In this document: piece by piece, positions 1 through 27,537 of the stretch
Position numbering within the stretch: the stretch's first letter is position 1
How the letters are laid out: each line of letters starts with the position of its first letter
Virus record (IMG/VR): IMGVR_UViG_3300005287_000001
Length of the DNA stretch: 28,969 bases
Source: a virus
Reading direction: 5' to 3' (one strand)
The notes under the pieces: model-generated
Seen by the model: the letters and a program-made list of their open reading frames with translations, nothing else
Databases searched by the model: none
Told to the model about the DNA's origin: nothing
Made by a program: the position numbers and the translations under genes

Positions 1-110
1 ATGTTTCACTTCTATAGTAATGTCAAATACAATCTTACTGATGAACAGTTCAATAAGATTATGGAGGACAAAATGGATAGAGCAGAAATCTTAATTAGTG
101 GTTATAATAA
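1..110. repeat. Exact 110-bp terminal overlap with 28860..28969, a circular-contig signature; unique genome length is 28859 bp
   Basis: Compared by eye. The first 110 nt (atgtttcacttctatag...gttataataa) equal the last 110 nt. The overlap lies inside an uninterrupted ORF. Confidence 0.95.
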
Positions 111-795
111 AATGGATGAAAGAGAACGTAATGTTTATAGTACTACTCTCCATCTGGACAATGAATTGGTATCCATTACTAAGGAAGGAATGTTGGTAAA
201 CAATCTGAAAATACAAGCCTTTAAAAATAAACAGTTAATTCGTAAACAATATACAAATGATAATTTAATGCTGGCTGCTTATAGAGATGGTTCTGGTAGA
301 TTTACTCCTACTGATGAGTTGAGTAAGGATAGTATAGAACTATTTACTGGCCAAATTAAAAAGATAACAACATTCTCATATAAAAGTATGTTACAAGATT
401 ATCTGAATACTGCAGATAGATTACTGAGAAACGAATATGAAATGGAGTTTACAGAGTTTAGAGATATAAGATACTATATGAAGGAAAGTGAACTCAATAC
501 TCTAAAATGGAGTAAGGGTAAGATAGCCAAAGCTATTGCAGACAAAAAGATGTTGAATATAGTATTTCTCAATCTTTACAATCATTTTGGAGAAGGATTT
601 GTAAGCAGTGCAGATGTTAAAAAGTATTTGGAAGGAGAATTTGATAGATTACAAATTGATTTAACTGCAAAGGCAGCTCTTATTAAAAATAATGGAATCT
701 TTAATGTAGAGGAAACATCTAAAAGAATAGATGGCAAAGTAACTAAGGGATTTGAAATTGGAAGTAGAATATTAAATTTTAAAATATATGAATGA
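1..795 (+). CDS. SF2 DExH helicase-like protein, C-terminal part; same gene as 27855..28969 across the circular junction, about 599 aa in total
   Basis: Frame is continuous with 27855..28969 (28860 corresponds to position 1, in frame). TGA stop at 793-795. No in-frame TAG. Confidence 0.7.
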   Translation: MFHFYSNVKYNLTDEQFNKIMEDKMDRAEILISGYNKMDERERNVYSTTLHLDNELVSITKEGMLVNNLKIQAFKNKQLIRKQYTNDNLMLAAYRDGSGRFTPTDELSKDSIELFTGQIKKITTFSYKSMLQDYLNTADRLLRNEYEMEFTEFRDIRYYMKESELNTLKWSKGKIAKAIADKKMLNIVFLNLYNHFGEGFVSSADVKKYLEGEFDRLQIDLTAKAALIKNNGIFNVEETSKRIDGKVTKGFEIGSRILNFKIYE

Positions 796-1204
796 ATTTA
801 AGAAAGCCGAATAGCTCGGTAGGGAAAAGTTTTAGCAAGGTCTAAAGAAGAATGGCATAAAGAACTATAAATTTACAACTAACTAGTATGATCCAATAGA
901 CTGTATTATCTGGAATAAAGGTAAAAAGATACTAATTGAGATCAAGAACAGAGATGAGAAGTATGAGAATTATCCAACACATATGATGGAGCTTCACAAA
1001 TATAGAGATATGATGAAAATGCCAGCAGATAAAAGATATTATGTTTGCATATTCGGAAACACCTTTTACTGGTACAATCTAAATGATATTGATGTTTAGC
1101 CAGAATTAATGTATGGAGCTAAAACAACAGCCATAGATACTGGCAAAGTTCTTAAACAAGTACTATTTATACCAACTAATAAAGCAAAAATTACAAAACT
1201 ATGA
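788..1204 (+). CDS. PD-(D/E)xK nuclease-like protein, 138 aa, with 4 in-frame TAG codons
   Basis: The ATG at 788 overlaps the helicase stop. With TAG as sense the product is MNEFKKAE(Q)LGREKF(Q)QGLKKNGIKNYKFTTN(Q)YDPIDCIIWNKGKKILIEIKNRDEKYENYP...DV(Q)PELMYG...KITKL. D-x(n)-E-I-K is a restriction-endonuclease-like motif. The TGA at 1202-1204 overlaps the next ATG (ATGA). This ORF is absent from the standard-code track. Confidence 0.6.
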
Positions 1205-1809
1205 AAAGAATTATATTATTCCTTATTACAATTGTTACTCTTAATGTAAATGCACAAGAGTTAGTTCTAAATAAATTAATAGATGATACTACAAGATGTT
1301 GTTGTACCAATACAGAAAAAATATTTGGCGGTACTAAATACACATTAGCTAAAGATGCTTTTGAAAACGGACAAGAAATTTACAGTCTTTATTTTTTCGT
1401 ACATAAAGCCAGTATGATTAAATCTACATTTAAAGATCCTTTAGCTTACTCACCAATAATTAAATTGATTACTGAAGATGGTGATACTATTGAAGCATAT
1501 AGAACTTATGGTGATGTTGATTTAGGAGGTAAGACTTTTACAATGCCACATTATGATCATTATTATGGCCGAATAGGTAAGTTAAGATATAGTGGTAGTT
1601 TTCAGAATGGCTATGACTCATATAATTGGACAATTTATAAAGGAACATATTTATACCAGATAGAAGAAAATAAACTTCAAATACTTTTTACTAAGAAATT
1701 TAAAATAATGTATGAAAATCAATTTGGTATATGGAAAGAAATAAATTGCCATAATATAAAGAAGCATTTACAAAAATCTTATGAAATAATGAAGCCTATT
1801 AAATTTTAA
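1201..1809 (+). CDS. Secreted protein of unknown function with an N-terminal signal peptide
   Basis: 202-aa ORF. The N-terminus MKRIILFLITIVTLNVNAQ is a classic signal peptide. TAA stop and no TAG. Confidence 0.7.
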   Translation: MKRIILFLITIVTLNVNAQELVLNKLIDDTTRCCCTNTEKIFGGTKYTLAKDAFENGQEIYSLYFFVHKASMIKSTFKDPLAYSPIIKLITEDGDTIEAYRTYGDVDLGGKTFTMPHYDHYYGRIGKLRYSGSFQNGYDSYNWTIYKGTYLYQIEENKLQILFTKKFKIMYENQFGIWKEINCHNIKKHLQKSYEIMKPIKF

Positions 1810-1813: not shown

Positions 1814-1948
1814 ATGATACTATTAATAATTATACTACTAACCTTCCTTGCTGTGGTATTAGTAAAGATGATTACTAAGATACATAAAGATTTTAAAAGA
1901 GATATGTACATCGCGAAAATAGATAGAAAGTACCGAAACCTACGATAA
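1814..1948 (+). CDS. Small single-pass membrane protein, 44 aa
   Basis: ATG at 1814. Product is MILLIIILLLTFLAVVLVKMITKIHKDFKRDMYIAKIDRKYRNLR, with a hydrophobic N-terminus and basic tail. TAA at 1946-1948, followed directly by a terminator. Not in the ORF track because it is too short. Confidence 0.45.
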   Translation: MILLIIILLTFLAVVLVKMITKIHKDFKRDMYIAKIDRKYRNLR

Positions 1949-2066: not shown

Positions 2067-3662
2067 ATGAAAGTATTAGGTTATATCAGAGTCTCCACAG
2101 ACAAACAAGATTTGGAGAGACAGAGAGATCTCATTAGGAGATATTGTATTGACAAAGAACTCATTGGTATCGAAGAGGATTTTGCCGTTAGTGGTGCTAA
2201 GCTAAGCCGAGTTGGATTGAATAATGTCCTTACAAATTACAGTAAGGTGAATGTAGTGGTAGTGAGCGAACTATCCAGAATCAGTAGGAATGAGGATGTG
2301 ATGGAAACATTTAATCTCCTTTATGAAATACTGAGCAAGTTTAATCTGGTTATGTTGGATGATCCTAGTAAAGTATATAAGAAGAATATGGGATTGACTG
2401 ACTTTCTTATGCTGGCTATAAAAGCTTATGGTGCAGCAGATGAAAGAAAGAAGATTACAGAACGTATGCTTACTGGTAAAGTATCCATCGTAACCAGATA
2501 CCCTTTAGCGTATGTAGGTGCACAAGTTCCGTTAGGATTTAAGGTGGTCAGTACTAAGTCTATACCTAAGAGTGTATTAGAAGTAGATGAGGAGAAGATA
2601 CAAATAGTAAAGAAGATATATCAATTAGTAGTAGAAGGATCTTCTTTAAGACAAGCTACTAAGAAGATTAATATGATGTATAATTTGAATATGTCAGTAC
2701 CTGCAGTAAGATTTGTACTTAAAAATCCTTTTTATAATGGAAGGAGACTTTATAAAGGTACATATTACGATACTGGAATAAAAGTAATAGATGATATTAC
2801 CTTTAATAAGATTGGTAAAGTACTACAACATAATAGAGAGGATAAGAGAAATGATGTAAAGTTTCTCAATCCATTAAAAGGCATTCTTAAATGTACTTGT
2901 GGACATAATTTAGGTGTTGTTTACTATGATGGTGAACCTTATTATGGATGTGCCAATCATACTAGTGTTAGATATAAGGCTGCTACAATACTAGATATGG
3001 TCTGGAGAGATGTAAAGTATAGAATAGATACTCAATTATTTCTAGATGATACAAATGCCAGTATAAAGAGATTGGAGGATGAAAACTCACAGATAGAAGT
3101 ATCGGCCAAAGAAATTGAGATGCAAATACTAAATAAGGATAAAGAAAGAGATTCTTTACTAAATAGTATGACTGATTTTACCAATGTGAATTTACTAAAA
3201 GTAATAGATCAGCAAGCCAATAATATAGATGCTGAAATATCTAAATTGAATAAAAGATTGGAAGAGATGAGAGACCAGCAAATGGACAATATACATAAAA
3301 TAGAAACAGAAAGAAAAGCTCTTGTTACTAAGATAGTAGAAACTCCAGAAGGTAAAAAATCTTTATACCAGAAGTTGCTAGATAAAGTCAATATATTCAG
3401 ATCAACTAAAAGATCTTCTGTCGTTAAGATACATTATAAGAATGGTACAATTAGTACCTTGTTCTATTTAGATAGCCATAGACCTATCATATACAGCCTA
3501 CCAAGCGGTTTTGAGTGGGATGCAGATACTTGTACCATCTCAACAAAATCTAGTCCCAGAAAGGCTGGATTGAATGAAGGTAGGTACAAACTGCCAGAAG
3601 TACGTCAGATCCCTTTAAAGGACATAAAAAAACTATTCGTTATTGAGGATTGGGAAATATAA
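2067..3662 (+). CDS. Large serine recombinase (phage integrase)
   Basis: 531 aa. The N-terminus MKVLGYIRVSTDKQDLERQ is a resolvase-type catalytic Ser motif. A Cys-rich zinc-ribbon-like segment (CTCGHNLGVVYYDGEPYYGCANH) and a coiled-coil segment follow. TAA stop and no TAG. Confidence 0.9.
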   Translation: MKVLGYIRVSTDKQDLERQRDLIRRYCIDKELIGIEEDFAVSGAKLSRVGLNNVLTNYSKVNVVVVSELSRISRNEDVMETFNLLYEILSKFNLVMLDDPSKVYKKNMGLTDFLMLAIKAYGAADERKKITERMLTGKVSIVTRYPLAYVGAQVPLGFKVVSTKSIPKSVLEVDEEKIQIVKKIYQLVVEGSSLRQATKKINMMYNLNMSVPAVRFVLKNPFYNGRRLYKGTYYDTGIKVIDDITFNKIGKVLQHNREDKRNDVKFLNPLKGILKCTCGHNLGVVYYDGEPYYGCANHTSVRYKAATILDMVWRDVKYRIDTQLFLDDTNASIKRLEDENSQIEVSAKEIEMQILNKDKERDSLLNSMTDFTNVNLLKVIDQQANNIDAEISKLNKRLEEMRDQQMDNIHKIETERKALVTKIVETPEGKKSLYQKLLDKVNIFRSTKRSSVVKIHYKNGTISTLFYLDSHRPIIYSLPSGFEWDADTCTISTKSSPRKAGLNEGRYKLPEVRQIPLKDIKKLFVIEDWEI

Positions 3663-3800
3663 CTCTAAGATGCTTCTAAAGAGTTGGAAGGTGGTTTTGA
3701 ATGGGATAATATATATGTAGAGGTTTTTAGAATTCGGTTTTGCCCAGTTGTGTTTAAGGCGGAGGCGGGTGGTTTCCAAAATTTCACTTTAAAAAAATTA

Positions 3801-3843
3801 CCCCCCTTCCCCTTCGACCGCACCCATACCCCTTCCCCTACCT
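3801..3843. other. C-rich tract, giving G-runs on the minus strand; a compositional outlier in an AT-rich genome
   Basis: ccccccttccccttcgaccgcacccataccccttcccctacc. On the minus strand there are five runs of at least 3 G. It lies between the convergent ends of the integrase and the 3893..4177 gene. Confidence 0.6.
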
Positions 3844-3892
3844 ACAATAATAAAGGTGAGCCACCATTATAGTAGCCCACCAGTGGTGCAGT

Positions 3893-4177
3893 CTAAGCTG
3901 TCTTCTGCCCTAGTAACTCTTGTATCTTCTCAGAGGGAAGTGTCTTTAAATATGCAGCTATTTCATCGCTATGTTGCAATGCCATCTTCATCTCTACTTC
4001 AGAACGTAGTTGTTGGAGATTAGCTACATAGGTAGGATATACCTCTAGAAGAGTATCTATCCTCTTTAATACCTTGCCTAGTTTGGCCTCATCAGTAGAG
4101 AACCAAGTACCAAACAATTTAACACATTCAGCTCTGTTGTTGCCGAGCACCACATTGATCAAAGTAAGATCTTCCAT
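3893..4177 (-). CDS. Hypothetical protein, 94 aa; the only ORF in the genome that appears to terminate at TAG
   Basis: ATG at 4177, with an upstream in-frame TAA at 4223-4225. The stop at 3893-3895 is TAG. The sequence after it does not look like protein. Confidence 0.5.
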   Translation of the reverse strand: MEDLTLINVVLGNNRAECVKLFGTWFSTDEAKLGKVLKRIDTLLEVYPTYVANLQQLRSEVEMKMALQHSDEIAAYLKTLPSEKIQELLGQKTA

Positions 4178-4335
4178 TATACATCTAATTATAAATTGGC
4201 TAAGAGGATTATGGAGCTGCCATTATTAAACCACAGTACCTACCTCTACTAACTCCTCGATACTGTATTAGTTGCCATTAATTTAAGATTTATAACATCA
4301 GTACTTCTGGATAGATCCACAGTGAGACTGCAATA

Positions 4336-4343
4336 CAAAGGTA
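4336..4343 (-). promoter_or_regulatory. Candidate -7 box TACCTTTG on the minus strand
   Basis: The reverse complement of caaaggta matches TAnnTTTG and is the same 8-mer as at 2051. It points toward the 3893..4177 gene. Confidence 0.35.
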
Positions 4344-4371
4344 TATAAAATATCTGATATATGATATATTT

Positions 4372-4390
4372 ATTAAGGTATATTAACAAA
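4372..4390. repeat. 19-bp direct repeat, copy A (attaaggtatattaacaaa)
   Basis: Identical to 4541..4559. It lies immediately downstream (minus sense) of a hairpin and about 29 nt upstream of a TAnnTTTG box. Confidence 0.8.
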
Positions 4391-4414
4391 GTGAGGCCAG
4401 CCGAAGCTGACCTC
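4384..4414 (-). terminator. Hairpin with a UUCG loop; putative terminator
   Basis: Minus strand reads GAGGTCAGC-TTCG-GCTGGCCTC. The stem is 9 bp with one mismatch, followed by CACTTTGTT, which is a weak U tract. Confidence 0.45.
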
Positions 4415-4499
4415 TAAATTACAAAAGTGTTGAATCAACGGGTAAAACCATCACAGGCATAACTTTATGTAAACCATAAATGATTCACCACAATTGAAT
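4385..4499 (-). ncRNA. Candidate small non-coding transcript bounded by a promoter-like box and a hairpin
   Basis: No ORF longer than 13 codons. An 11-bp stem with one mismatch forms between GTGGTGAATCA and TGATTCAACAC. An inner TTTATG/CATAAA hairpin is also present. Bounded by the -7-like box at 4506-4513 and the hairpin at 4393-4414. Confidence 0.2.
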
Positions 4500-4505
4500 T
4501 CGGCA

Positions 4506-4513
4506 CAAAGATA
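4506..4513 (-). promoter_or_regulatory. Candidate -7 box TATCTTTG on the minus strand
   Basis: The reverse complement of caaagata matches TAnnTTTG. It is preceded by repeat copy B at the same spacing as copy A to its box. Confidence 0.3.
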
Positions 4514-4540
4514 ATAATAATATTTGAACTGGCAATACTA

Positions 4541-4559
4541 ATTAAGGTATATTAACAAA
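4541..4559. repeat. 19-bp direct repeat, copy B
   Basis: Identical to 4372..4390. Confidence 0.8.
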
Positions 4560-4582
4560 AAAAGGCAGATCTTCACAGACCC
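4557..4582 (-). terminator. Weak hairpin plus T7 after the holin gene; putative end of the late operon
   Basis: Minus strand reads GGGTCT-GTGA-AGATCT, a 6-bp stem with two G-U pairs, then GCC and TTTTTTT. Confidence 0.35.
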
Positions 4583-4649
4583 ACCCTCTAGATAAATTTT
4601 ACTGAAATTGCTGCAAAGGTAGTCAGAATAATCTGAACTGCCAAAGCAT

Positions 4650-4907
4650 TTAAGAATCTTTACTATTAATTTTCTTATCTATGTATTCTTTAGTCTTAGA
4701 TTCAAACTCACCTAAGTTAGTTCTAAAGTAAATACTAATGCCATAAATACCACCACTGTAGACTAAAGCCTAAGCGACATAAAGCAATACTCCAGTAGTA
4801 ATATTGAAACTGTTAAGGAAGAAACATAAGAAGGTAAGTACAACACCAGTAAGTATCATAAATATAGCTGATCCATACTATAACCATTCTTTTGTATTCT
4901 GTGTCAT
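4650..4907 (-). CDS. Holin-like membrane protein, 85 aa, with 2 in-frame TAG codons
   Basis: The ATG overlaps the endolysin TGA (ATGA). Product is MTQNTKEWL(Q)YGSAIFMILTGVVLTFLCFFLNSFNITTGVLLYVA(Q)ALVYSGGIYGISIYF...KDS. It has two hydrophobic helices and a charged C-terminus. TAA at 4650-4652. Absent from the standard-code track. Confidence 0.65.
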
Positions 4908-5320
4908 AAATGTAGTATTTGATTTTTATGTTTACTATTTGGTAGGGATATATGTATCCAGCTATAATTACGTTCATTGATTAGCTGCCCTACCACAATC
5001 TAACCATCTTTAATCATCTATTGTGCTAATTCAAACAAACGTCTATTATCTGCCAATCCTATATTAATATCTGCAGCCTCCCCATAGAGGTGCTAACTAG
5101 TCTTACTACCATTAACAGCCTTATTTAATTCTGGACATCTATAGCCAGATGTTATCTTTATTGGTTTCTTAAATTTATCTCTTAAAGGCTATAAAATCTC
5201 CCTAGCCAATCTAGAGATATTATTCTTTACAGATTGGCTGGGAGCATTATCAATATGTAGCCTATAAGCAGTAGAAGAAGCTACAAATTCTTCTAGTGTA
5301 AAATTATTTGTTATTTCCAT
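4904..5320 (-). CDS. Endolysin, zinc peptidase M15 family (Peptidase_M15_3-like), 138 aa, with 4 in-frame TAG codons
   Basis: ATG at 5318-5320. The motif is ...KITSGYRCPELNKAVNGSKTS(Q)HLYGEAADINI...YSWIHISL, giving the H..D..H metal-ligand pattern typical of this family. TGA at 4904-4906. Absent from the standard-code track. Confidence 0.85.
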
Positions 5321-5851: not shown

Positions 5852-8800
5852 TTAACTATAATGTAGAGATTTATAATAACTATACAGATATGGATATGTA
5901 TCAACATTAAGCTTATTGCCATCTATATCACACAAATAATATTTAGAACCCTCTTTATAGAAATAGTATTCATAAGTAACACCCTTCTTTCCAGAAGTAT
6001 ATTGCCACATTTGAACAGCATAAATTGTCTTAGATGATGATCCTATTGATTCACTATACTCCAATACAGCATAATGTCTATACCAACCACTCAACGATGT
6101 TAGAGAATTCAAATCAGATGATGTGATATTATTAGCTGTCTTAGACGATTTGGCTGTGTATGCTCGACCATTATAAGTTGATGGATTAGAGTTACCACTG
6201 ATTCGGTATGTCTTAACAGAACTAACCTACTTATAACCTTCGTTGAATTTATAGTAGGTAGATGTGCTACCTATCTTAGATCCATAAATATCAGCACTAC
6301 TAATCTGATTGCTGGATAGTGAAACATCAGATATTGGATAAAGTGTTGTTATTTCTGACCAGCTATTATCCTTAGCTTCAACATAATAGGTAATTCCGTT
6401 TGGCCCTAAATCATATAAGACTTCACCATTCTATATAAACTGTAGGATAGCATTACCAGAACTATCCACACCAATCTGTATATTAACAGAACCATCAGTA
6501 CCTGCAACTTGCATCAATCCATTCTATAGAGTGATTGTAGCAGAACCAGTAGTAGTTAGTTTGTTAGCCTCAACAATATTGGTATTCAATTTACCTTCGC
6601 TGTTTAATAAGGCTGTCTGTGTACCACTATTATTCTATACAACAACCGTATCTGCTGTAAGTGTTATCTTTCGATTCTCTATATCTATACCAGTTTCTAG
6701 AGTTAGTTTCCTATTCAATATAACCTCTGGCGGAACCATAAATCCAGTAAGTACTCCAAAGTCTGCAACATACCATCTTCCTACTACACCAGTAATACCG
6801 TATGCCCAATTTAGTGTACAAATGCTATCATAAGCAGAAGTAAACGTTACAAAATAAAGATACCAACCATAACCTAGAGAAATCTTATCTGATGAATTGG
6901 TAAGTCTGTTGTAAGAACCAGAATCATCTGAACTATAGCAACCAGCAGTTAAGGTTGTAGATCTACTATTATAAGGCTTAGCAATAACATAGTATGTTAT
7001 AATAGATCCATTATAATCATCATATATATATGGTGCAACAGTTGTGCCCTATGCATAGGCTGCTGTCTCACTAGTTGCTGTATAATATAGATTACGATAG
7101 TGCCAACCAGTTTCTGTATCCTTAGCCTTTGTATTAGTTACTCCAGAATCCTAATGACTGAACCAATCACCAGTAGCAAACGGCTGTACAATAAGATTGT
7201 TAGTTTCTAATGAATAATCACCTTGTGCGAATCCCCAGTCAGTTGCAATCTGACCTTCCTCCAACTGTAACCAGTGAATCATATAACCACTACTATTCGT
7301 AATTGATAAGGTCACATAACCAGTTGTTGAGGCTGTATATGTGCTACCATTACTAAGTGAAGTACCATTCAGTTTAGTTGTAATAGTTCCTGCAGCAGAG
7401 TAAGTATAAATATACGTTGTACCACTCTCTATATAGACTTGTCTGGTAATAGATTTAATACTACCACCAATCAGAGATTGTGGGATTATATTATTAAACT
7501 CAGTGAGCTTACCAATCTTAGCTGAAATCTTATCAGCTGTCTGTGTTATAGTAGATACACTATTTTCCAGAGTTGTCTGTTTATTAGTAAGTGTATTAAT
7601 TGATGTTGTATGACTGCTAACAGTAGAGGACAAACTATTTGCTGTAGCTTGTACACTAGCAATATTAGTTTTATTGGTTTCAATATTAGTTTTATTAGTT
7701 GCAATATTAGATGTATTAGTTGCAACATCATCCTCCAGATTATCAACATCACTATTTAAACTGCTAATGGAAGAAGTATGGCTAGCAAGTGTTGCCTAAA
7801 TACTAGTATCAGTCTATTGTAATTTAGATATGTTAGTTTCATTGCTAGTAACTCTTCCATCTAAGTTAGATATGGAAGTAGATTGACTGCTTACTGTTGA
7901 GGACAAACCATCAACTGTTGCTTCCAAAGATGTCTGTTTATTGGAGATGTTAGTAATTTCTTCTGTATTACTGCTAACATTACCTTCCAGATTGTCTATA
8001 TCATTTTCACAAGCAGATATTCTATTCTCTAATTCAGTAGTATCAATTCCACCTATGTCTATAGACAATTCACCATTAGCTGTCCATTTGATTTTACCAC
8101 CAGCTAATTGGCCAGAACCATCTTTATTAAATTCCCACATACTATTAAGGTTACGCATTGCACCAGTTAAGTATGCATTCTCAGCATATAATCCTTGTCC
8201 TTCCAGAGTTGTACCATTCCATACAATACCCTCCAAATTACCGATTCTCACATTAGTTGGAACTGTTCCACCAGTAGAATCTACATCAGCAAGTACACTC
8301 TCACTGTTAAGTTGTTTCATAAAGTCTATGTAAGCACCATCATAAGGATTCAATTTAATAATGGTCTATCTGTTCTCATCAGATTTATTACCAATCCTTA
8401 TTAAATACTTATTCACAGCACTATCTGGATCAACTGTAGTCCAAGTGGTTTCACCTCTATCATTAGTAGAAGATCCACCAGTAAAGCCAGTATTTGGAGT
8501 TACTCTAACTGTATTGTCACCATCTTTATTAACTGAGACCACCAATCCTTTAAATGACCATATCTAAGTCTCAGAAGCCTTATACTGTAATTGTACATAA
8601 TCATTAGCTACAAATGGAGGATATTCATTAATAGTAAATATCCACTCATCACCATCTTTTGTAACCTTCTCTATCTATCCAGTATCTGTTACTAACAAGA
8701 TACCATTAGTTGCTCTCATCTCATTATATGTAATCACATAAACATCTAGGTTGCCATTTACTTTAACATTACTGAACTCTGCAGTACCATCATTTTGTAT

Positions 8801-9571
8801 GCGCCAGCCATTACCACTACCACTAGTAAATGATGGACTACCTATATCTAGACCAGTGCTTATGTAATTACTACTTATTCCTAATGCTACATTATTTGCT
8901 TTATCAACAATATAGAATCCATTTTCAACTACAGACTTTATTTCAGTTGGATATTCGGATTCTGTACCAACATATATCTTAGTACCAGAGGTTTTATTAA
9001 CCATATCCAAATCATTCCATATAGATGTTGTATCATCATTTACTGCAAACACATCAGTTTTGTTTGGTACAATATGGAACGTTTGGTCTGTGCTGCCAGA
9101 TATATTTAAGCAGTGATTTTCATCCTCATTGATACCCCAACAGTCAAATTGGAAACCATTTTCCAAAGTAAGCTCATCCACCTTTAATTGAGAAACATCA
9201 ATCGTTTCAGATGTAAGAGCTGTGATATTTGCAGAATCAATATCTAATGGTTCTGTAAGTGTAAGATTACTAATAGTAGCACTTACTATATTTGCATTCT
9301 CTGCTGTAAGTATTCCAGTAAAGTTTGCATCAATACCAGTAAGTGTACCAGTAATATTAGTCTCACCTAAATTAGCTATTGCTGCTGTAAGTTTATCTGT
9401 ATCTATTGAGTAAGCCGTTAATGTATTAGTTGTAATCTTCTCACTACTAAATTTAGTTGAATAACTGCTACTGCTAGATGTATTGGCATTAAATTTAGAT
9501 GTGGAAGAAGTGCCAGAATTACTACTACTGCTACTTCTGGCACTCACCCTTATATTAATTAAATCACTCAT
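5852..9571 (-). CDS. Giant tail fibre / receptor-binding protein, 1239 aa, with 11 in-frame TAG codons
   Basis: One frame joins track fragments 8675..9571, 7814..8353, 7151..7633 and 5852..6112. TAG codons start at 8675, 8564, 8366, 7814, 7796, 7151, 7049, 6635, 6524, 6431 and 6227. No TAA or TGA occurs inside. The central region has Ser/Thr/Asn-rich heptad coiled coil. The ATG overlaps the upstream TGA (ATGA), and the stop is TAA at 5852-5854. Confidence 0.8.
7659..7722. repeat. Three tandem 21-bp repeats inside the tail-fibre gene
   Basis: caatattagttttattggttt / caatattagttttattagttg / caatattagatgtattagttg. They encode 7-aa repeats (TNKTNI-type), in frame. Confidence 0.7.
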
Positions 9572-12252
9572 ACTTCTTTTAAAGTTATGGTTGAAGATGC
9601 CATTCTCATATCTGTATTAATAGACAAAGGATAAAATGTTTTACCTAAATATCCGATAGTATAGGTATTGAATGGACTAACATTAATAGTATTATTATCT
9701 AGTGTTGTTTCAACTATTATCTTAGGAGTATTGAACTCTTTATAATAGTGATCAACGTATAGTTTCTCAGCATAGGCTGTTATGCCTTCATTATTATCGG
9801 TAAGGTTCTTAAAGGCTGAATTGTCACTAACATTAATTGCCGTTGATATATTAATCGTCGGGGCTGCAACACCTAATTCATAAGCCTCAGATGCACTTAA
9901 AAGAGTATTGATATTAAATTCAACATCATCTTTCTTCTTTATATATTTGTCCGTTTCATCTGAACAGTAAACAATATCAGCATCCCCATCATTTTCTATA
10001 TTACCATTATCGCTAACAATCTTACATTCAAAGTCCTTTATAACAATAGCACTGATGTTGTCTAGTACATTCTTACTGTTGGCATAAAACTTAGTGCTCC
10101 TAAACATAGTTGGATGTCTCCTCCACACAGTAACGAACTCACTATTTACTGGAGCAATTATACGGAATTCTAATTGTCCATATAAATCAGAAGGAATAGC
10201 AATTGCAGTACCTTCATTATCTCCTAAATTCATACTGTCTGTAATGTTGTTAGAGATGTCAAATTTGTTACCAACTATGTAGTCACCAATATTTGGATCA
10301 TATCCTAAAGAGAATGATGGTATTGCTTCCTCAACAACTGATGCATCTGCTGTACCACTAGTTTTAGCTGTTTCCCATTCTTCCTTAGTCATCCATTTAT
10401 AAGTACTGTCATATCCCCAAACCTTATTACCATCACTGTCTAATGTATAGTTACAAAGTTCTACACAGTACTTATCACCAACCTTTAATTGGCATTGTAA
10501 AATACCTATCTTACCAATATTATCTGATACTGAACCATCGCTGTTATAAGCATATTTCCAAGTATCATTTTTCCAATCTTCATCTGGATCAGAGAAATAA
10601 AACCTATCTAAATAATATGGATAATTAGTTGGATGTCCAGAAGTAAGTTTATTAGTACCAGTACTGTCATAGAAGTAAACTCCATAACGACCATTACCAG
10701 AACCTTCTCTGTTATTGTCTACAACTGACCACCAACCATCAGTATACCAACTATGATTTAAAAGTGGTTGCAACATCATCTCACCACTAAAGACAAAATA
10801 GTTAGTTGCATCATCACCACCAATCTGTCCCCAAGCTGCTGCTGTGGTAGATTTGTAAACTATAATACCAGTATCCTCTTCAACTGCTTTATTATAAATA
10901 GTCTGGAGGTAATTACCAATTTCAGCAAACTTAGTTTCACTATCATCACCACTACCATTAACTGTAATAGTTATATAATTCTCCATACTATCTGGAGCTT
11001 TATAAGTAGTAGATGAAGCAGTACCAGCCTTGTGTTCTGTATGTCCCCACTTAGCTAAGAAAGGACAATACTTATAATTCTGTACCTAATCATAAAAGGC
11101 AAGGCTGTCAGTACTAAGTGTTCCGTTATAAACTGATTTGAAGTTTGAACCATCAAAGTAATTGAAGTCCCAACTAGCATTATAGGCTAATTTTGTAAAG
11201 AAGTCTGTTGCTTCTTGTGCATCATAGCCATCATCATAGTCATTCATCATCCAGTTATGGAAACCACTATTAGATGATTTACCTTCACCAAATGCCCATA
11301 TTTCAGTCATATATCTCTTCCTGCGAGGCCATAAAGATGTAACTGAATCATCATCCATTGGAGATGAAATAACATCTTCTATAGACTCTAATTTATCTGT
11401 AACTGCTATCTGATTATAAACATCAGCAACAGAAATATCTGTATCATCTGACATATAATCATTAACAGTAACGGTTAAGGCTTCTGAAGTAAGTGTAGAA
11501 GCAGTATCTCCTCTAAGAGTAATCCAACTAATGTTGTTATTCTTTACACTGTTCCAATCAAATATATAGAAGTCCTTACCTTCTTGTATAATATGTAAAT
11601 TAAGGAATTTAAGGATCTCTTCCAGTAATTCCTCATTTGTATACATATCATCAAAATCCTCTCCTAAAAAGAGGTTTTCAGAAACACCAACAGTTGTAAA
11701 GACATTCTCACCATTATTAGTTTTAGAACCATCATAATAAATACAACCGTCAGTATCACCAAATATAATATCTAAATAATCATAGAATGACCTAACTTCA
11801 CTATCAATTTTTCTGGCATTATAAGCACTTTCATTTGATGCTAGATAGTTGTATTCCAGAGTTGCCAGAAAATCGGTACAGTTAATCTTTATTGAATTGT
11901 ATGTTTCACTATATGGCTGTGTATAGACATTAGGTTCTATATGGCCATAAAAGACTACTGTATCTCCTTTAGAGACCGTTACTGTAGTATCTGATGGCTT
12001 ACCAGCAAACAAATAGTCACCTAACCATTTAGTACTATAAAATTCAATCTCTGCGGATTTCTTTATTATGTGTGTGAAGTTATCCTCACATTCTGTTTCT
12101 ATCTGTAACGGATCATCGCTGAAGTAGCACATAACATTACCATCGGAATCAGTTGTTTCCTCAAAGGTAATGTTAGTGCCTACAGCTGTGGATTCAATAA
12201 CTACAGTTACTAAATCATCGTTAATGTCTTTAAAACTACCAGTTATTTTCAT
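9568..12252 (-). CDS. Distal-tail / baseplate-hub protein, 894 aa if the single TAG at 11086 is read as sense; equals track ORFs 11086..12252 plus 9568..10986
   Basis: Both ORFs are in the same frame. They are separated only by TAG (11086-11088) and 33 open codons. The position directly after the tape measure matches the Dit/Tal slot. The ATG overlaps the TMP stop, and TGA is at 9568-9570. The function is assigned by synteny only. Confidence 0.55.
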
Positions 12253-15176
12253 TATTTTATTCCAGTATTTTTACCTACTGTTCCTTTTACTTTACTATAA
12301 TTTCGTAGTGCCATATATAAGTCAGAACCTTTAATCCTAACTTCACCACCTACAACTCCTCCAGTACCACCACCGTTGTCCAGTATGTTCCAGAGGTTAG
12401 CTTGCTGGCCTTTAGTAAGTACAGCTTCACCACCGTTTACTCTAATTAGATTTTGGTCACCTACAAATCCATTGCCATTAACAATACCACCATTAGCAAA
12501 TGCACCAGATATAGAAGCAATAGCTGCTATAACTGCAGCAACACCCATTGCTATAGCTACTATGTTCATTGGGAAAGGCATACTAGAACCACTAGCAGTA
12601 GCACCAGAAATACCCTTAGCTGTATTAGCTGCAACTATTGTACCAGCATTAGCAACCTCTTGTTGTGCATTTTGATTCTTAACCTATTGGTTAGCTGTTT
12701 CAGAAGCTGTCAGCATATCAGTAGCCATCTTTACTGTATTCATTATAGTCTATACAGATTGTAAAGTAGTAGTAACCACACCTACAACACTAGTAAAGAT
12801 CTCCCAAGCACTAGCACCTTCTTCTATTGCAGATACCATATTGGAAACTGAACTACCAATATTATCAATGGCACTAATAGAATCATTAAGATTATCTAAA
12901 CTTAGCCCTTCTGTATCAATCTCCAGTTTTAATGGTTCTAGACCTTCCTTCTGGAGTATTTCATTAATTTTAGCTAGTTCAGCCTCTGCCTATTTCTTAT
13001 TAATGCTACCAATCTATACATCAGTTTGTAAATTAGATACTGCTGTCTATGCATTACTATAAATTTCTCTCTTATTTTCCCTAGTTTGTTGTGGAGTCTT
13101 TACAGTAACAGTTGGAGAAAGTTGATTAAACATCTTCTACATCTCCTCCTTAGTTGGCATTTTAATCTTAGGTGTTACAACTGGCACTAGAGATTCAGCC
13201 TTAATAGACTTTTCTAAATCTTCTTTAGCCTTCTTTAATTCATTAATCTTACTTTGTAAGGTAACAGAAACTGACTTATCTGCAGATGCATTAAGTTGCT
13301 TAGATAATTTAGATATTTCTTGTGAATACCAATCTAGTGAACCTTGTGCTGCAACATCAGATTTCTTAGTAATGCCTTTGGATTTTCTACTAGAAGGTTT
13401 ATTATTGTTGTCAGAAACTACATCAAGTTTATTTGTTAAACTTTTGGCAGCCTTCTTTATTGCATCAATTCTCTTTTGTATATTAGCAGCAACTGCTTTA
13501 TCTGTAGTTTTATTAAGTTGTTTATAAAGCTTGTTTAGTTCATTACTATACTACTGAAGCTTTTTTGTTGATGGATCCTTAGTCTTATCAGTGGTATTGT
13601 TGTTTTGCGTCAGGCGTTTATTGTTGTCTGCTTGCCTTTTAAGATTGTCTGCCATTTCCTGTGCGGCCTTTTTCGCCAATTGGTCTTCCGTTCCTAATAA
13701 CTTTCGAACAGGGGCAAATGCTGCATTGGCTGCTCTGTTAATACTATCAAGCCAATCAACAACTGTCTTTAACCCATTTACAAGCTTTGTAACAGCTTTA
13801 ATAGCTCCAACCTTTATATCTGATACAAACTCATCCCAACCTTTACCAGACACATCAAAAAGGCTTATGATTGCTCTCTTTAAATCTTCGGTAGCATCCA
13901 TCTGTTCTTTGGCAAGTCTTACTCCTTCGGGTGCGTTATCGTAAAGTTCCTGCATATTACCCTTAATATCCTTAATGGTAGTTAAGAACTGATAACCTGC
14001 GTCTTCACCCGGACCTCCGAAAATGTCTGATATAGCCTGTCCAACCTCTTGTGCCTGTGGTGACATTTCTGACATTTTTTGACTAACTTGTTTCATTACA
14101 TCAAAAGTGGTAATAGAACCATCAGCTAAGCCCTTCATAACCTTCTTTGAATCAATGCCGATTGCGTCAAGTGCCTTTTGTACTGCAGGTGACATTTCTC
14201 TAATTCGGATATTTGCTTCCTTAATGGAATCTACTGCCTTATCACTAACAATACCTTGCTGCTGACTTCGGATTATTGTTGTAGATAGTTCGTCAATACT
14301 CATCCCTGCTTCTTTTGCGTAGGTAGAGTACTCCTCCATTTGAGATTTGTACTCATCCTTATCAACGGCAAGGTTTAAACCATCCTATATTGAATCTGCT
14401 GCTTCTTGAAAACTTACACCCATCTGTCTCGCAACAGTGTTAGCCGTCTTAACAACGTCATCCATACTCATACCAAACTGCTCTGCTGTTGTTTCGCAAG
14501 TTGCTCTAAAATCTATAAGGGCTTGACCTCCAAGTCCTGTGAACTGTTGAATGGCCTGATTTGCTTTTGAACTCTCAGCATTGAAGTCTACAAAAGCCTT
14601 TGCACCTGCTATAACACCTGCTGCAACTGCAGTAATACCAGCACCTTTAATCATCGTACCACTAAGTTCTGGCATTTTAAAGTCCTTCACACTAGCCATA
14701 GATGATTGTAGGTTCTTACTAAATGAGGTTATATCTCCACTCTTTAAAGAGCTGATCATATTAGATATGGAATTACTAAGATCGTCTACAGATGATTTTG
14801 CACTATCCATAGCTTCCTTAGTTTCACTAGCAATCTTACTCTATATATTAGTATATCTTTGTAATTCACCAACTAAAGTTTTATAAGCACTACTAGTTTC
14901 CTTACCTTTATCAGCTAAGTTGGCAAGTTCTTCTTTGATATTCTTTATTTTACCTTGTAAAGTCTTGCCAGAACCTCCTAATGCCTATAAATACTTTCGT
15001 ATTTCTTTCTCATTATCACCGACTGCATCGGTTACATCATCCAGATTGCCCTTTAATTTTTTAAGACCAGCTCTTTCAGATGCATTATTAAGGTCTTTTA
15101 TGTTATTGATGGCATCTTTTATACCACCAGAAAATTTACTGGTATCTAGTACCAGTTCTTCCTTTAATTGTCCCAT
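12252..15176 (-). CDS. Tail tape measure protein, 974 aa, with 10 in-frame TAG codons
   Basis: One frame joins 14985..15176, 14385..14810, 13551..14339 and 12252..12581. I checked every intervening codon. TAG codons start at 14985, 14841, 14385, 13551, 13137, 13047, 13014, 12990, 12750 and 12684. There is no internal TAA or TGA. The product is alpha-helical and Ala/Lys/Gln-rich with a Gly-rich C-terminus. TAA at 12252-12254. Confidence 0.85.
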
Positions 15177-15810
15177 TATATTATACCCTTAGATTTAAGT
15201 AATTCTTCTCTTTTCTTAGCTTTTGCAAGCATCTATTCTCTCTTCTCTTTGGTCATTGTTACTTTAGGGAGGTGCGGAACTTCTTTGTCCCAACTAAATT
15301 GTATAATATCTTTGGGCTTTAGTTTCTTTTTAGAATTGGCTTGTGCAAGTATGTAGCAGATAGACCTAGTTTGTTCCCAGTCCTCTCTGACTGAATATCC
15401 CATCTTTTTTATAATAGGTTCTAGTTCATATCGCTACATCTTGTCCATAAAATACTCTACCGAAACACATTTATATTGTAGGCAAAGTAAACACATTAAG
15501 TCCGTAAACGTAATTACTTCGCCATCCCTTTTTTTTCTGCTTGTTCTCCCTGCTGTAAGCTCTTGCTACTATCAACTACCCATTGATTAAACTTAGCAAA
15601 CTGATCTGGATTACTGTCCAACCAGTCTAAGAAATCATCAAACTTCAGTTCAATGTCTGGATAATTAGCTAAAATCACCGCAAACATATAAGTAATCATA
15701 TCTGATACTGTCTGTGGATTAAACATCTTACTTGTTATAGTTTCATATATAATATATGATCTGAACTTATTTTTAAGTTCTAATTCGTTACCGTTAATTG
15801 TTATTTTCAT
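15176..15810 (-). CDS. Tail assembly chaperone GT-type fusion made by -1 frameshift; the T part has 2 in-frame TAG codons
   Basis: After the A8 run the -1 frame stays open for about 118 codons (KKRDGEVITFTDL...KREELLKSKGII). It runs to TAA 15176-15178, which overlaps the tape-measure ATG. TAG codons are at 15434 and 15233. Confidence 0.6.
15514..15810 (-). CDS. Tail assembly chaperone (gpG-like), 98 aa
   Basis: It lies between the major tail and tape measure genes. It is acidic, with a slippery run near its 3' end. TAA stop and no TAG. Confidence 0.7.
   Translation of the reverse strand: MKITINGNELELKNKFRSYIIYETITSKMFNPQTVSDMITYMFAVILANYPDIELKFDDFLDWLDSNPDQFAKFNQWVVDSSKSLQQGEQAEKKGMAK
15529..15536 (-). 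promoter_or_regulatory. Slippery A-run (A AAA AAA G) for -1 programmed ribosomal frameshifting
   Basis: The zero frame reads GCA GAA AAA AAA GGG, 5 codons before the chaperone stop. The -1 frame is open downstream. Confidence 0.6.
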
Positions 15811-15825
15811 ACTGCTTATAAATTA

Positions 15826-15857
15826 AAAAAAAGGAGGAATCTACAAAGACCCCTCCA
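15826..15857 (-). terminator. Rho-independent terminator after the major tail protein gene
   Basis: Minus strand reads GGAGGGGTCT-TTGT-AGATTCCTCC, a 10-bp stem with two G-U pairs, followed by T8. Confidence 0.75.
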
Positions 15858-15874
15858 TAACTATTAATTATCTA

Positions 15875-16339
15875 TCAACCGTTTGTACTAGCAGTGGTTT
15901 TAACTAATGCACCTACACCGTTGAAGGATACACTGTAAGTAGCCAGTTCACCGTTACCTGCTGTCATAGATATACTAGAGATAACTGCTTTACCAGAATA
16001 CATATCATTGCTGGAAGTCCAACCACCTTCTGGTACGATGTGTCCATCATCATCTGGATCTGTCGTTTTATCTTTATTAGCTACAGTAGCAAATACGAAG
16101 TCCAAAGACTTACCAGCTAACATAGCATCTACTAATTCAGTGTAATCTGCTACAACCATAAGGTTATCACTAGTAGCTGACCAGCTCATTTTACCTCTCT
16201 TGGTAGCTCCCCACTGTCCCGTATCTTTACAACTGATGTCAATATCATCAGAGTTGATTTCTACACTACAAGAAGTAGCGCAACCTAAAGTTTTACCACC
16301 CAAGAATACTTGGATGTCTTCACCCATTAAATTAGCCAT
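15875..16339 (-). CDS. Major tail protein (TP901-1/phi13-like)
   Basis: 154 aa, in the expected position. The pattern GGKTLGCATSCSVEINSDDIDISCKD...WSATSDNLM is typical of this family. TGA stop and no TAG. Confidence 0.75.
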   Translation of the reverse strand: MANLMGEDIQVFLGGKTLGCATSCSVEINSDDIDISCKDTGQWGATKRGKMSWSATSDNLMVVADYTELVDAMLAGKSLDFVFATVANKDKTTDPDDDGHIVPEGGWTSSNDMYSGKAVISSISMTAGNGELATYSVSFNGVGALVKTTASTNG

Positions 16340-16345
16340 AATAAA

Positions 16346-16729
16346 TCAAAAAATTATATTTGTTTCAAATGTTAGAGTTTGAATATATGCATCTTCTATA
16401 AAATTTTCCACCACTCCAGTAAGATAAATCCTACCAAAGTAATCATCTCTATGTAATTCTAATATCTTCCTTATTCGTTCAGCTATTGTAGCCGTTTCAC
16501 TATAGTTCTTAGAAGCTATAGCTATAGAGAAAGTAATACTATCCTTTACTACATTAGTTTTAGTATATTCTGTACTAAGAGAATTTCTAGTAAATATGAT
16601 AAAAGGATAGCTTACTGACTCTTCTGCCACAATAGGGAAAATATTATTACCTACTAATTCGGATAGTTCACTATCTTCTTTTAGTAAGGCATATAAGTAT
16701 TTATTAAAACTAAGACCAGTAACTTTCAT
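16346..16729 (-). CDS. Tail completion / tail terminator-like protein
   Basis: 127 aa. It lies between the neck genes and the major tail gene. TGA stop and no TAG. Confidence 0.55.
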   Translation of the reverse strand: MKVTGLSFNKYLYALLKEDSELSELVGNNIFPIVAEESVSYPFIIFTRNSLSTEYTKTNVVKDSITFSIAIASKNYSETATIAERIRKILELHRDDYFGRIYLTGVVENFIEDAYIQTLTFETNIIF

Positions 16730-17175
16730 TGATTATATTTTTTATATATTTTCTCTATAGCATTTTCCAAATTAGATTGTAATGACTGCTCCACTAGTTG
16801 TGAGGTATCAGCAACTGCTTTACTAAAGAAGTGTGTTGCCTCCATCTTACCTCTATACTGACCAGATTTATTATAACGACCGACTGTTCCGTTTTCAAAG
16901 AACTTTAATTTAAAATTGCCTTTATTGGAATTACTGATAATCTCAGTTCTTCCAGATAAACCACTTTTACTTACTTTTACTATTACACCACCCTATAGTG
17001 TTAGACCCCATTTATCTGGCTTATTATATGCGGTAGTTACTCCCATAAGGTTCTGAACAGCCTTTCGTTTAATAATATTTAGAGATTGTGTCATTCCAGA
17101 TCTGATAGCTGGTTTTAGTTTTTCAACTTCAATAGCCTTTAGAAATTGCTCTAATTTTCTACTGTCTAATTTCAT
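16726..17175 (-). CDS. HK97 gp10-like neck protein, 149 aa, with 1 in-frame TAG
   Basis: The 16993..17175 fragment continues through the TAG at 16993 to TGA 16726-16728, which overlaps the next ATG (ATGA). Assigned by synteny and size. Confidence 0.55.
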
Positions 17176-17489
17176 TCAGTAATCAGTTCTGTAGTTATTA
17201 CTTTCTTGTTCTAGTCCTTTACTGGCTCAATTGCCAGTATTCTGTATTTCTTAGAATCCCATTCTATATAATCTGTTTCAATAACATCTACATAATAGTA
17301 TACCTCAAATGTCTTATTGTATATATAAACTAGAGCATTATTCTCTGTCAATCTGTTTCCAGAATTGTGAATAATTCTTGCTCTAGTTGTGACATTCAAA
17401 GCGTACTCTTGTACCTACTCACCATAGTCATTCTAAACTGTAGTTGTTCGGTATATATTTATAATATCAGTCAATAATCCTGCTCTCAT
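17172..17489 (-). CDS. Head closure / head-tail joining protein, 105 aa, with 3 in-frame TAG codons
   Basis: Product is MRAGLLTDIINIYRTTTV(Q)NDYGE(Q)VQEYALNVTTRARIIHNSGNRLTENNALVYIYNKTFEVYYYVDVIETDYIEWDSKKYRILAIEPVKD(Q)NKKVITTELITE. This is the typical Phage_H_T_join pattern. The TGA at 17172-17174 overlaps the next ATG. Confidence 0.7.
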
Positions 17490-17514
17490 ATCATACACTT
17501 TGACGTTAAACGTT

Positions 17515-18741
17515 TTAACTCTTTACCAGTATTGCTTTACCCTCACTATCAGTAGATTCGGTAAATGTATATCCAGCATTAGATAATCTGGCAATCAGCC
17601 ATTCTTTGGTTGTGTCAGAACAGTTGGTAACATATACAGTTGTCAATAAGGTACAATGGTCAAACATATATGTATAGTTAGTAACTGCTGTGCTATCAAA
17701 ATTATCCAGATGTATAGTTTTTACTGCATAACAGTAACGGAACATACTATTAGTATTAGTAAGTACTGATGAGGCTAGCCAACTAACATCTATATCCTCT
17801 ATAGACTGCCAATTATAATGCATACCACCAACAATAGTTGCAACTGTATTCTATGTGGTAGGTGCTGAATAACTAGTAATTTTCGTAAATCCAGATAGGA
17901 AGCTACTAAAGTTAGTGCTTTGTGATACATCCCATTTACTAAGATCTAAAGATGTAATTCCAGTATTGTTATTTAAATCTAGGAACTGTTCAAAGGTAGT
18001 AACCTTAGAAGTATCAATTTCACCTATATTTAATTCCTTTAGACTGTTGCACCTATAAAAAGCTCTCTTCATATTGGTTACTGCTGAAGTATCCATACCA
18101 TTAAGTGTAACTGTTTCTAGTGCAGAACACTCATTACACAAATAGTTTAGTGTAGTATTAGAGGAAGTGCCAGTAAATCCAGATAAATCTAAGTTCACTA
18201 ATGAGGAGCAAACATTAAACATAGCATCCATAATAGTAACTGCTGTTGGATTCCATCCAGTTAAATCTATAGATTTTAGAGATTTACAAGACTAAAACAT
18301 CTGACTCATATTAGTAACCTTAGAAACATCCCACATAGATAAATCTAAGGAAGTTACTTTAACACAATTATTAAACACCCTATACATATTGGTTACATTA
18401 GAAGTATCCCATCCAGTAAAGTCAAAATTAACTAAAGGAATATTACCAGTATTGTCATTAAATATTCTATCCATAGTTGTTAGATTGCTGGAATCACAAT
18501 ACTTTAACCAACTCATATCATAGGTTTTAGTGGTATCAAATGCGTTATTAGTCCACCTAAAATTCCACTAATTAGGTAATACAATACTAGGTGGTGCAAT
18601 ACCTTCTATAGAAGTAACCTTATCTGCATAGCTTCTAAAAGTGTCACTGTCAGAAACAGTAACACCTTTATTAACTAATGCCTCTTTTATCGCTGTTTTA
18701 GTATCATTTAAATATGATAACTTTTCCGATATAGTTCCCAT
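17515..18741 (-). CDS. BspA-like leucine-rich-repeat (26-residue surface-protein repeat) protein, 408 aa, with 3 in-frame TAG codons
   Basis: It joins 18292..18516, 17851..18231 and 17515..17823 in one frame, with TAG codons at 18568, 18292 and 17851. The repeat F..C..L.SLDLS.WDVS.VT.M..MF recurs. The N-terminus is MGTISEKLSYLNDTKTAIKEALVNKGV. TAA at 17515-17517. Confidence 0.75.
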
Positions 18742-18743
18742 AA

Positions 18744-20831: not shown

Positions 20832-20839
20832 ATCACTAT

Positions 20840-20888
20840 AAAAATAAAAAAAGTGCAAGCAGGTAACTCTAAGTACCTACCTGCACTT
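20840..20888 (-). terminator. Hairpin plus T-rich run after the major capsid gene
   Basis: A 13-bp stem with 2 mismatches forms between 20853-20865 and 20874-20886. On the minus strand it is followed by TTTTTTATTTTT. Confidence 0.5.
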
Positions 20889-20912
20889 TAAAGGTTATTA
20901 ATTAATCAAAAA

Positions 20913-22130: not shown

Positions 22131-22138
22131 ACTTTATT

Positions 22139-27314: not shown

Positions 27315-27500
27315 CCGTCAGAAGTAATTTTTGATAGATTTGGAAGAGTGTGCAAAAATTGGGTAAAATTTGCACTTGGATTCTGGCAGGAAATGATTAT
27401 ATTTGTTTTAGAAAGTTAAGGAAATGGTGTTCAGATATTTTAATTCCAAAAACTAAATTCTATTCATAATTTTAAAATTTTATACAAGTTAGTTATTAAA

Positions 27501-27530: not shown

Positions 27531-27537
27531 ACACCTA

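Follow-up and report, generated by a model that had tools for sequence, protein, structure and literature searches.

The window analysed here is a stretch of viral DNA of 28,969 nucleotides (IMG/VR virus record IMGVR_UViG_3300005287_000001) in which a serine integrase gene and a holin-endolysin cassette lie about 1 kb apart, the holin gene ending 988 bp from the integrase stop. The integrase has no in-frame TAG codon, the holin has two and the endolysin four, and the window encodes a suppressor tRNA with the anticodon CUA. The question raised by this locus is whether TAG acts as a gate that lets the integrase be made at once and withholds the lysis proteins until the suppressor is available. 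A preliminary description of the sequence had proposed such a gate, and its counts for these three genes, as well as the distance between them, were reproduced. As judged from sequence, our analysis supports selection for making the integrase without the suppressor and the lysis proteins only with it. The grounds for this are the recoding of TAG, the standard code of the hosts of related phages, the truncation of the lysis proteins expected without suppression, the conserved avoidance of TAG by integrases and its enrichment in lysins, and the lack of any sign that the TAG-free genes were imported. The elements concerned are the following.

2067..3662, plus strand: large serine recombinase (the integrase) identified with Pfam, 531 amino acids (aa), TAG at 0 of 16 Gln-type codons
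4650..4907, minus strand: holin candidate, 85 aa, two transmembrane segments and a charged C-terminus, TAG at codons 10 and 46
4904..5320, minus strand: predicted endolysin of the Peptidase_M15_3 family (PF08291, 5.6e-20), 138 aa, TAG at codons 44, 76, 101 and 107
5852..25978, minus strand: late operon identified with Pfam and PHROG, 47 TAG codons in total
26285..26359, plus strand: suppressor tRNA, anticodon CUA (ARAGORN; Rfam tRNA, 53.9 bits)

Recoding of TAG and the lysis proteins

Under the standard code the minus strand breaks into short open reading frames (ORFs), and with TAG as a sense codon it becomes a continuous late operon. This operon contains TerS, TerL, portal, S78 protease, capsid, head-tail genes, tail terminator, major tail, tape measure, tail proteins and tail fibre. 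Once TAG is read through, TerL, the portal, the tape measure protein and the fibre are full length and match their Pfam families. TAG occurs in 17 of the 28 genes and makes up 66 of the 304 Gln-type codons of the genome (0.22). TerL, which was compared with 120 homologs (~75% identical), has six TAG sites; at four of them Gln is found in 103–120 of the 120 homologs, and at the other two the residue is K or M. The column of lysin codon 44 is Gln in 118 of 119 homologs and that of codon 76 in all 119. Since TAG falls on invariant Gln columns in TerL and lysin homologs, the alignments indicate that it is decoded as glutamine (code 15).

The tRNA(CUA) is the only tRNA found in the genome by ARAGORN and Rfam. 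Its CCA end is encoded, and an A1.A72 mismatch leaves the 1:72 position unpaired, which is compatible with a Gln-type acceptor end though not decisive alone. The tRNA is presumably charged as a tRNA-Gln. On the circular map the lysis cassette is ~7.5 kb away from the tRNA, which heads the early region on the opposite (plus) strand. A suppressor tRNA is present also in the related prophages L006, L007 and L015, near HNH or TerS genes.

The integrase is recognised by Resolvase (6.5e-21), Recombinase (8.7e-8) and, below cut-off, Zn_ribbon_recom (8.8e-4), and carries the motif YIRVSTDKQ. The start of the holin candidate overlaps the lysin stop, and its sole family match is phrog_8278 (function not assigned; E = 5.6e-12). 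Codon 76 of the lysin encodes the middle residue of the zinc motif S-Q-H-x-x-G-x-A-x-D, as the preliminary description had noted in placing one TAG within an S-x-H motif. Residues S75, H77, G80, A82 and D84 of this motif are invariant in 118–119 of 119 homologs, the motif aligns with the metal site of the 1LBU carboxypeptidase, and the TAG in S-Q-H is common to three lysin lineages. Without suppression only the first 9 aa of the holin and the first 43 aa of the lysin would be made, the latter ending short of its zinc ligands; the predicted loss of both lysis proteins thus agrees with what had been claimed.

The surroundings of the cassette have some features of their own. A 32-nt direct repeat is present in two copies downstream of the holin (4366–4397 and 4535–4566), each beside a hairpin terminator, and just past the holin stop the minus strand reads TTTG-N20-TACCTTTG (4614–4645), which fits the Bacteroides promoter consensus perfectly. 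Between the fibre and lysin genes there is a stop-free stretch of 96 codons on the minus strand (5424–5714) with no ATG, GTG or TTG near its 5' end, preceded by a 41-aa ORF (5721–5846). The stretch is 45% identical to residues 291–354 of g18744 (E = 3e-12). It could be a paralog of the fibre repeat, the product of a frameshift or a fragment.

The ends of the window share 110 identical bases (1–110 = 28860–28969), as in a circular assembly, so that the unique length of the genome is 28,859 bp. The best explanation is that the window is the whole genome of a temperate siphovirus-like gut phage of Bacteroidales; the compact temperate genome of the preliminary description is therefore complete and circular and has its own tRNA(CUA). 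The same genome was found in two other metagenome assemblies as contigs of ~28.8 kb, none of them joined to host DNA. A megablast of 25 kb against deposited phage genomes gave zero matches and an IMG/VR scan with the integrase gave zero relatives. TerL relatives number in thousands, and the nearest ones among species-representative genomes are prophages of Bacteroidales, with hosts in Bacteroidaceae, Sodaliphilus, Segatella copri (including a cultured isolate), Parabacteroides, Bacteroides and Muribaculaceae. A recoded relative whose host is in culture is L021, the prophage of Segatella copri iAP1412.

The code of the hosts can be read from the integrated relative L039, in which the order at the junction is lysin, holin, small gene, serine integrase and then host genes. 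G+C content is 0.25–0.33 in this prophage and 0.41–0.45 in its host, and the five complete host genes of the flank contain no in-frame TAG (0 against 37 Gln codons). The absence of in-frame TAG from these genes indicates that hosts of the phage family read TAG as stop, and we infer that the host of this exact phage is likewise a standard-code member of Bacteroidales. Standard-code prophages (L011–L014, L018, L022–L028, L030) and TAG-recoded ones (by direct translation, L003–L009, L015, L016, L032 and L034) are mixed in one TerL clade (56–76% identity) within the same bacterial order, which suggests a repeated or recent change of code. Some of the recoded members go far beyond the present genome in this respect; L004, for example, has TAG at 11 codons of TerL, at 9 of the portal gene and at 29 of the tape measure gene. 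The relatives are not one recent clone: TerL identities are 67–76%, and the integrases are 33–40% identical or non-homologous.

Distribution of TAG among genes and lineages

Besides the elements listed above, the following genes have to be considered.

27855..28859 continued in 1..795 across the junction, plus strand: SF2 helicase-like gene, 599 codons by translation, no TAG
788..1204, plus strand: g788, nuclease-like, 138 aa by translation, 4 TAG (4 of 6 Gln-type codons, the first at codon 9)
1201..1809, plus strand: g1201, moron-like, 202 aa by translation, N-terminal signal peptide, no TAG
1814..1948, plus strand: g1814, single-transmembrane peptide of 44 aa by translation, no TAG
3893..4177, minus strand: g3893, 94 aa (the JGI call is also 94 aa), no internal TAG by codon count, seemingly TAG-terminated
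3855..3881, minus strand: hairpin resembling an intrinsic terminator, 12 pairs and a T-tract, directly after the g3893 TAG
20913–22130, minus strand: major capsid gene, 405 codons, TAG at 0 of 16 Gln-type codons by codon count
26141..26299, plus strand: RHH-like DNA-binding protein, 52 aa by translation, TAG at codons 17 and 34
26371..26532, plus strand: TAG-free gene of 53 aa directly 3' of the tRNA, with a homolog after the tRNA in L007
26519..26998, plus strand: g26510, 159 aa from ATG or 162 aa from the GTG at 26510, 6–7 TAG
26931..27314, plus strand: HNH endonuclease (Pfam HNH, E = 4e-6), 2 TAG

The preliminary description had suggested a gene-by-gene statistical test of the TAG counts. 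When the 66 TAGs were placed at random among the 304 Gln-type codons, the heterogeneity between genes proved to be non-random (P ~1.5e-4), and the occurrence of at least three zero-TAG genes among ten Gln-rich ones had P ~3e-4. The integrase, the helicase-like gene and the capsid, each with 0 of 16, have P = 0.02 apiece. The TAG-free set of the preliminary description (integrase, helicase-like protein, secreted protein g1201 and membrane peptide g1814), all confirmed to lack TAG, differs from the holin and lysin with Fisher P = 3e-5 and from the rest of the genome with P = 4e-5. Off-frame TAG trinucleotides number 39 in the integrase and 38 in the helicase-like gene, so the absence of TAG is specific to the reading frame. 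The share of TAG among Gln-type codons hardly differs between the strands (plus 0.20, minus 0.22).

The same bias was then sought in 13 deduplicated recoded Bacteroidales prophage lineages, pooled by gene family and compared by Fisher tests with a background TAG/Gln of 0.30.

Serine integrases: 0/53, p = 8e-9, depleted
Tyrosine integrase: 0/25, p = 2e-4, depleted
Helicase-like: 4/62, p = 1e-5, depleted
Capsid: 18/152, p = 5e-8, depleted
g788-like (nuclease-like): 39/54, p = 3e-11, enriched
RHH: 14/24, p = 0.005, enriched
g26510 family: 26/46, p = 1e-4, enriched
Lysin: 17/31, p = 0.004, enriched
TerL: 71/180, p = 0.002, enriched

The direction of the bias is consistent across every lineage pooled. 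All integrases together, from four lineages, have TAG at 0 of 78 Gln-type codons; the integrase of L039, situated at the prophage-host junction, is 40% identical to the one described here, and both are TAG-free. The strongest enrichment belongs to the nuclease-like gene and the small early genes and not to the lysis cassette.

These data modify the picture of a split between lysogeny and lysis. That the integrase is independent of the suppressor and the lysis genes are dependent on it was borne out, but freedom from TAG is not peculiar to lysogeny genes: it is shared by the late-strand genes for the capsid, the protease, the major tail protein and the tail terminator and by g15514. Nor do two classes sit neatly side by side, as had been stated, for the plus-strand region with the integrase holds the tRNA and several TAG-rich genes, and g788, the RHH-like gene, g26510 and the HNH gene on this strand all carry TAG. 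The contrast runs gene by gene, not module by module.

A possible licensing role of the suppressor tRNA

The reading that we prefer, with a probability of roughly 0.6, is that the phage tRNA licenses the lytic programme and that TAG-free genes work in the plain host cytoplasm. TAG would be placed where translation should need the tRNA, that is in the lysin, the holin, the nuclease-like protein, the RHH-like protein and g26510, and the TAG-dependent set would include also HNH, terminase, portal and most tail genes. The suppressor-free set would be formed by the serine integrase, the helicase-like protein, the moron-like proteins g1201 and g1814, and g3893. Integration and early functions could proceed before the tRNA appears. 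Leaky transcription of the lysis genes in the lysogen or in early infection would be harmless without the tRNA because both the holin and the lysin would stop early. Such a gate presupposes a tRNA that is silent in lysogens; when and how its expression is controlled, and hence the lock or timer function itself, we infer. A second pressure would be overlaid on the first: suppression is presumably inefficient, and very highly expressed proteins such as the capsid would avoid TAG.

Several observations weigh against this reading. The tRNA lies on the integrase strand, possibly in the same transcription unit, and no clear terminator was seen between the two (weak candidates are near 27760–27890), so that every expression of the integrase may bring the tRNA with it. 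Amber suppressors need not be toxic, and this one may be expressed constitutively from the prophage. A suppressor tRNA was not found within 10 kb either side of TerL in several recoded relatives (L003–L005, L008, L009, L016, L021, L032 and L034). Lack of TAG is not a lysogeny-specific property, being found also in the capsid, protease and major tail genes. In the present genome the excess of TAG in the lysin (4 of 8) is only marginal (P = 0.07) and that in the holin (2 of 3) is not significant. Finally, the pooled tests take codons and lineages as independent and ignore shared ancestry, and their p-values are indicative only.

The distribution of TAG could also be accounted for by expression level only, with suppression being inefficient in competition with RF1 and TAG being purged from abundant proteins and tolerated in low-copy ones without any gating role. 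The capsid has TAG at 0 of 16 codons here and at 18 of 152 in the relatives (p = 5e-8), its gene being TAG-poor in every recoded relative, unlike those of TerL and the portal, and low-copy enzymes are rich in it (TerL 71/180, nuclease-like 39/54, lysin 17/31). Integrases, however, are low-copy proteins and yet have 0 of 78, and the helicase-like gene (4/62) contrasts with the gene that overlaps its stop codon (39/54). Abundance fails on both these points and is unlikely to be the whole cause; expression level is best treated as a second, additive pressure.

The state of the code might do more than lock or time lysis, namely set the choice between lysis and lysogeny, e.g. through TAG-gated regulators. 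A switch of this kind was proposed by Borges et al., according to the published description, and the RHH-type regulator with its two TAG codons, which overlaps the tRNA from upstream and belongs to a TAG-enriched family (14/24), would be a suitable component. The other candidate is g3893, which adjoins the integrase and lies between it and the lysis cassette. Its L039 homolog (43% identity, E = 4e-25 in a pairwise comparison) has a TAG at the same C-terminal point, and this, together with the hairpin and T-tract that follow, makes TAG seem a genuine stop of this gene. Read-through of this TAG would lengthen the product by 96 aa, with the extension overlapping the 3' end of the integrase. On the other hand, no repressor or anti-repressor was identified, the RHH assignment is below Pfam thresholds, and the TAG stop of g3893 is supported by just one other lineage (the homolog search with g3893 returned only the self-match). 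A true decision switch therefore seems quite doubtful.

Still more speculative is a reading in which TAG has two meanings within one genome, stop and sense, and serves as a two-state code switch. In this joint scheme g3893 would stop at TAG in the lysogen and, after the tRNA has appeared, receive a 96-aa extension that disables it. The RHH-like protein, nuclease-like g788 and g26510 would be made only after the tRNA has accumulated, the tRNA itself would be the first RNA product of the early region, and g26510 would possibly be the directionality factor of the serine integrase. If this were true, a two-state code would set the direction of the integrase (integration or excision) and the commitment to lysis, beyond blocking leaky lysis.

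Two sequences near g3893 may be mentioned separately. A short ORF upstream of it on the minus strand (4189–4281) begins with MATNTVSRS followed by TAG-TAG-AGG-TAG. With read-through it would extend to a TAA situated 12 nt ahead of the start codon of g3893; it is not present in the L039 leader, and it could sense suppression or be due to chance. An unusually G-rich tract for this AT-rich genome, GGGGAAGGGGTATGGGTGCGGTCGAAGGGGAAGGGGGG, lies on the minus strand at 3800–3845, in the interval from the terminator of g3893 to the 3' end of the integrase; it may be attP-related or structural.

Recent acquisition of the TAG-free genes from standard-code phages or hosts, with TAG not yet accumulated in them, would fit the presence of standard-code prophages in the same TerL clade, and the non-homologous integrases of the relatives (serine or tyrosine) do indicate that modules are exchanged. 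Such a mosaic origin is nevertheless improbable. In codon usage the integrase, the helicase-like gene and g1201 are correlated with the late genes (r = 0.89–0.93) as well as the latter are among themselves, and thus show no sign of recent import; the helicase-like gene is inherited within the clade, being 50% identical to a DEAD-like protein of prophage L004 and TAG-free in both; and serine integrases as distant as 40% identity are both TAG-free. Chance absence of TAG from a few long genes, for which one could cite the individual P of only ~0.02 and the post hoc choice of genes by the preliminary description, is hardly credible in view of the genome-wide P values (~1.5e-4 for heterogeneity, ~3e-4 for zero-TAG genes) and the repetition of the pattern in independent lineages.

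Known recoded phages and neighbouring plus-strand genes

The idea that recoding restricts lytic genes, which the preliminary description had linked to published work, is indeed stated with integrase statistics by Borges et al. (bioRxiv 10.1101/2021.08.26.457843; later Nat Microbiol 2022). Their published description, as far as it bears on the present case, covers small TAG-recoded "Garnet" prophages in Prevotella, 34 ± 5 kb in size with a curated prophage of 24.4 kb. These prophages reside in standard-code Bacteroidetes and have identical free circular forms, and their integrase is among the few TAG-free genes (p = 5e-3). In the "Topaz" prophages of Oscillospiraceae integrases likewise avoid TAG (p = 1e-16), and in other clades lysis genes are preferentially recoded; recoding is proposed there as a lysis/lysogeny switch. 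By this published description only, the present genome probably belongs in or near the Garnet clade. It shares with Garnet the small size, the reassigned TAG, the recoded structural and lysis genes and the TAG-free integrase. It differs in being less recoded (17 of 28 genes with TAG against a Garnet mean of 71%) and in having TAG-free capsid, protease and major tail genes. The TAG-rich nuclease-like gene beside the TAG-free helicase-like one, the overlap of the TAG-bearing RHH-like gene with the tRNA and the apparently TAG-terminated gene go beyond the Garnet account as described. Topaz phages are similar as small recoded prophages of standard-code hosts whose integrases shun TAG, but they belong to another phage lineage with Firmicutes hosts, whereas all relatives found here are from Bacteroidales.

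The crAss-like code 15 phages, as described, have in common with this genome TAG read as Gln, a phage suppressor tRNA, Bacteroidales hosts and preferentially recoded lysis genes; Gln at TAG was shown in them by metaproteomics, according to the description by Peters et al. (PMC9523058). They differ in being podovirus-like with ~100 kb, in being discussed mainly as lytic and in having no integrase contrast. Also in contrast to them, no theta (HDV-like) ribozyme was found beside the tRNA here (compare PMC10879173), Rfam searches around it at gathering thresholds and at E <= 1 returning the tRNA alone. In the "code-change module" of the Jade phages, as presented by Borges et al., the code-change machinery is likewise written in the standard code, recoding being found in the lytic genes downstream of it; there, however, TGA is read as Trp and a tRNA synthetase and RF1 form a module upstream of the lysis cassette, instead of a tRNA alone.

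The genome is thus a new well-resolved example of a recoded temperate phage with a TAG-free integrase, the idea of a code gate and the integrase statistics having been published already for Garnet and Topaz. No experimental test of the code-switch hypothesis was found in the searchable literature. A compact complete genome with one code-change component, the tRNA, in which TAG-free and TAG-dependent genes stand clearly apart, together with relatives in cultivable hosts (Segatella copri, Bacteroides, Parabacteroides), offers a practical system for a first one, which would address code switching as a control of prophage safety or of the choice between lysis and lysogeny. The family-wide comparison refines the published idea in that avoidance of TAG by the capsid points to a cost of suppression, the peak of enrichment lies outside the lysis cassette, and one gene apparently keeps a TAG stop.

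The N-terminal part of the 599-aa helicase-like protein is encoded by 27855..28969, and its C-terminal part lies within 1..795 (resuming at 111, past the repeat). The length claimed in the preliminary description is correct, and its identity as a helicase was verified only in part. The protein itself has no match in Pfam, PHROG or PDB by sequence or profile searches. It belongs to a family of ~600-aa proteins with 1,238 representatives, and 13 of 34 family members match Pfam DEAD (PF00270; best 3.4e-6). The family keeps DEYH and SAT, and motif I is atypical (GVGGT; pattern GxGGT). The designation "SF2 helicase-like" is reasonable on these motifs, the protein being a putative helicase. The 541-bp non-coding gap 5' of the gene (27314–27855) holds three copies or inversions of GTGTAACCATTTTAC (at 27538, 27576 and 27735) and an AT-rich inverted repeat, and is a candidate replication origin.

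Gene g788 is located between the helicase-like gene, whose stop its start overlaps, and g1201, for which no Pfam or PHROG match was found. In 11 homologs of g788 D38 and E51-x-K53 are invariant, giving the signature D-(x12)-E-x-K, and the family has sub-threshold matches to NERD and PDDEXK_14; PDB sequence and profile searches with it gave nothing useful. The protein is probably a PD-(D/E)xK nuclease. Homologs were found in L004, L006, L007, L009, L016, L032 and L034 and make up the most TAG-enriched family of the clade; in L004 the gene has TAG at 7 of 8 codons and adjoins the TAG-free helicase-like gene.

The last 15 nt of the RHH-like gene coincide with the 5' end of the tRNA. Its product has weak matches to RHH_1 and NikA-like proteins, below cut-off, and in L007 the family has TAG at 7 of 7 codons. 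Sigma-70 promoter scans, whose consensus is not suited to Bacteroidales, gave scores not above those of shuffled sequences, and a genome-wide search for the Bacteroides-type pattern TTTG-N18-22-TAnnTTTG gave 2 matches against 1.25 expected, which is not informative. Upstream of the RHH-tRNA pair, TTTG at 26082 is followed after 20 nt by TATATTTA, a 7/8 promoter match by eye; it is possible that this is a near-consensus Bacteroides-type promoter from which the RHH-like gene and the suppressor tRNA are transcribed.

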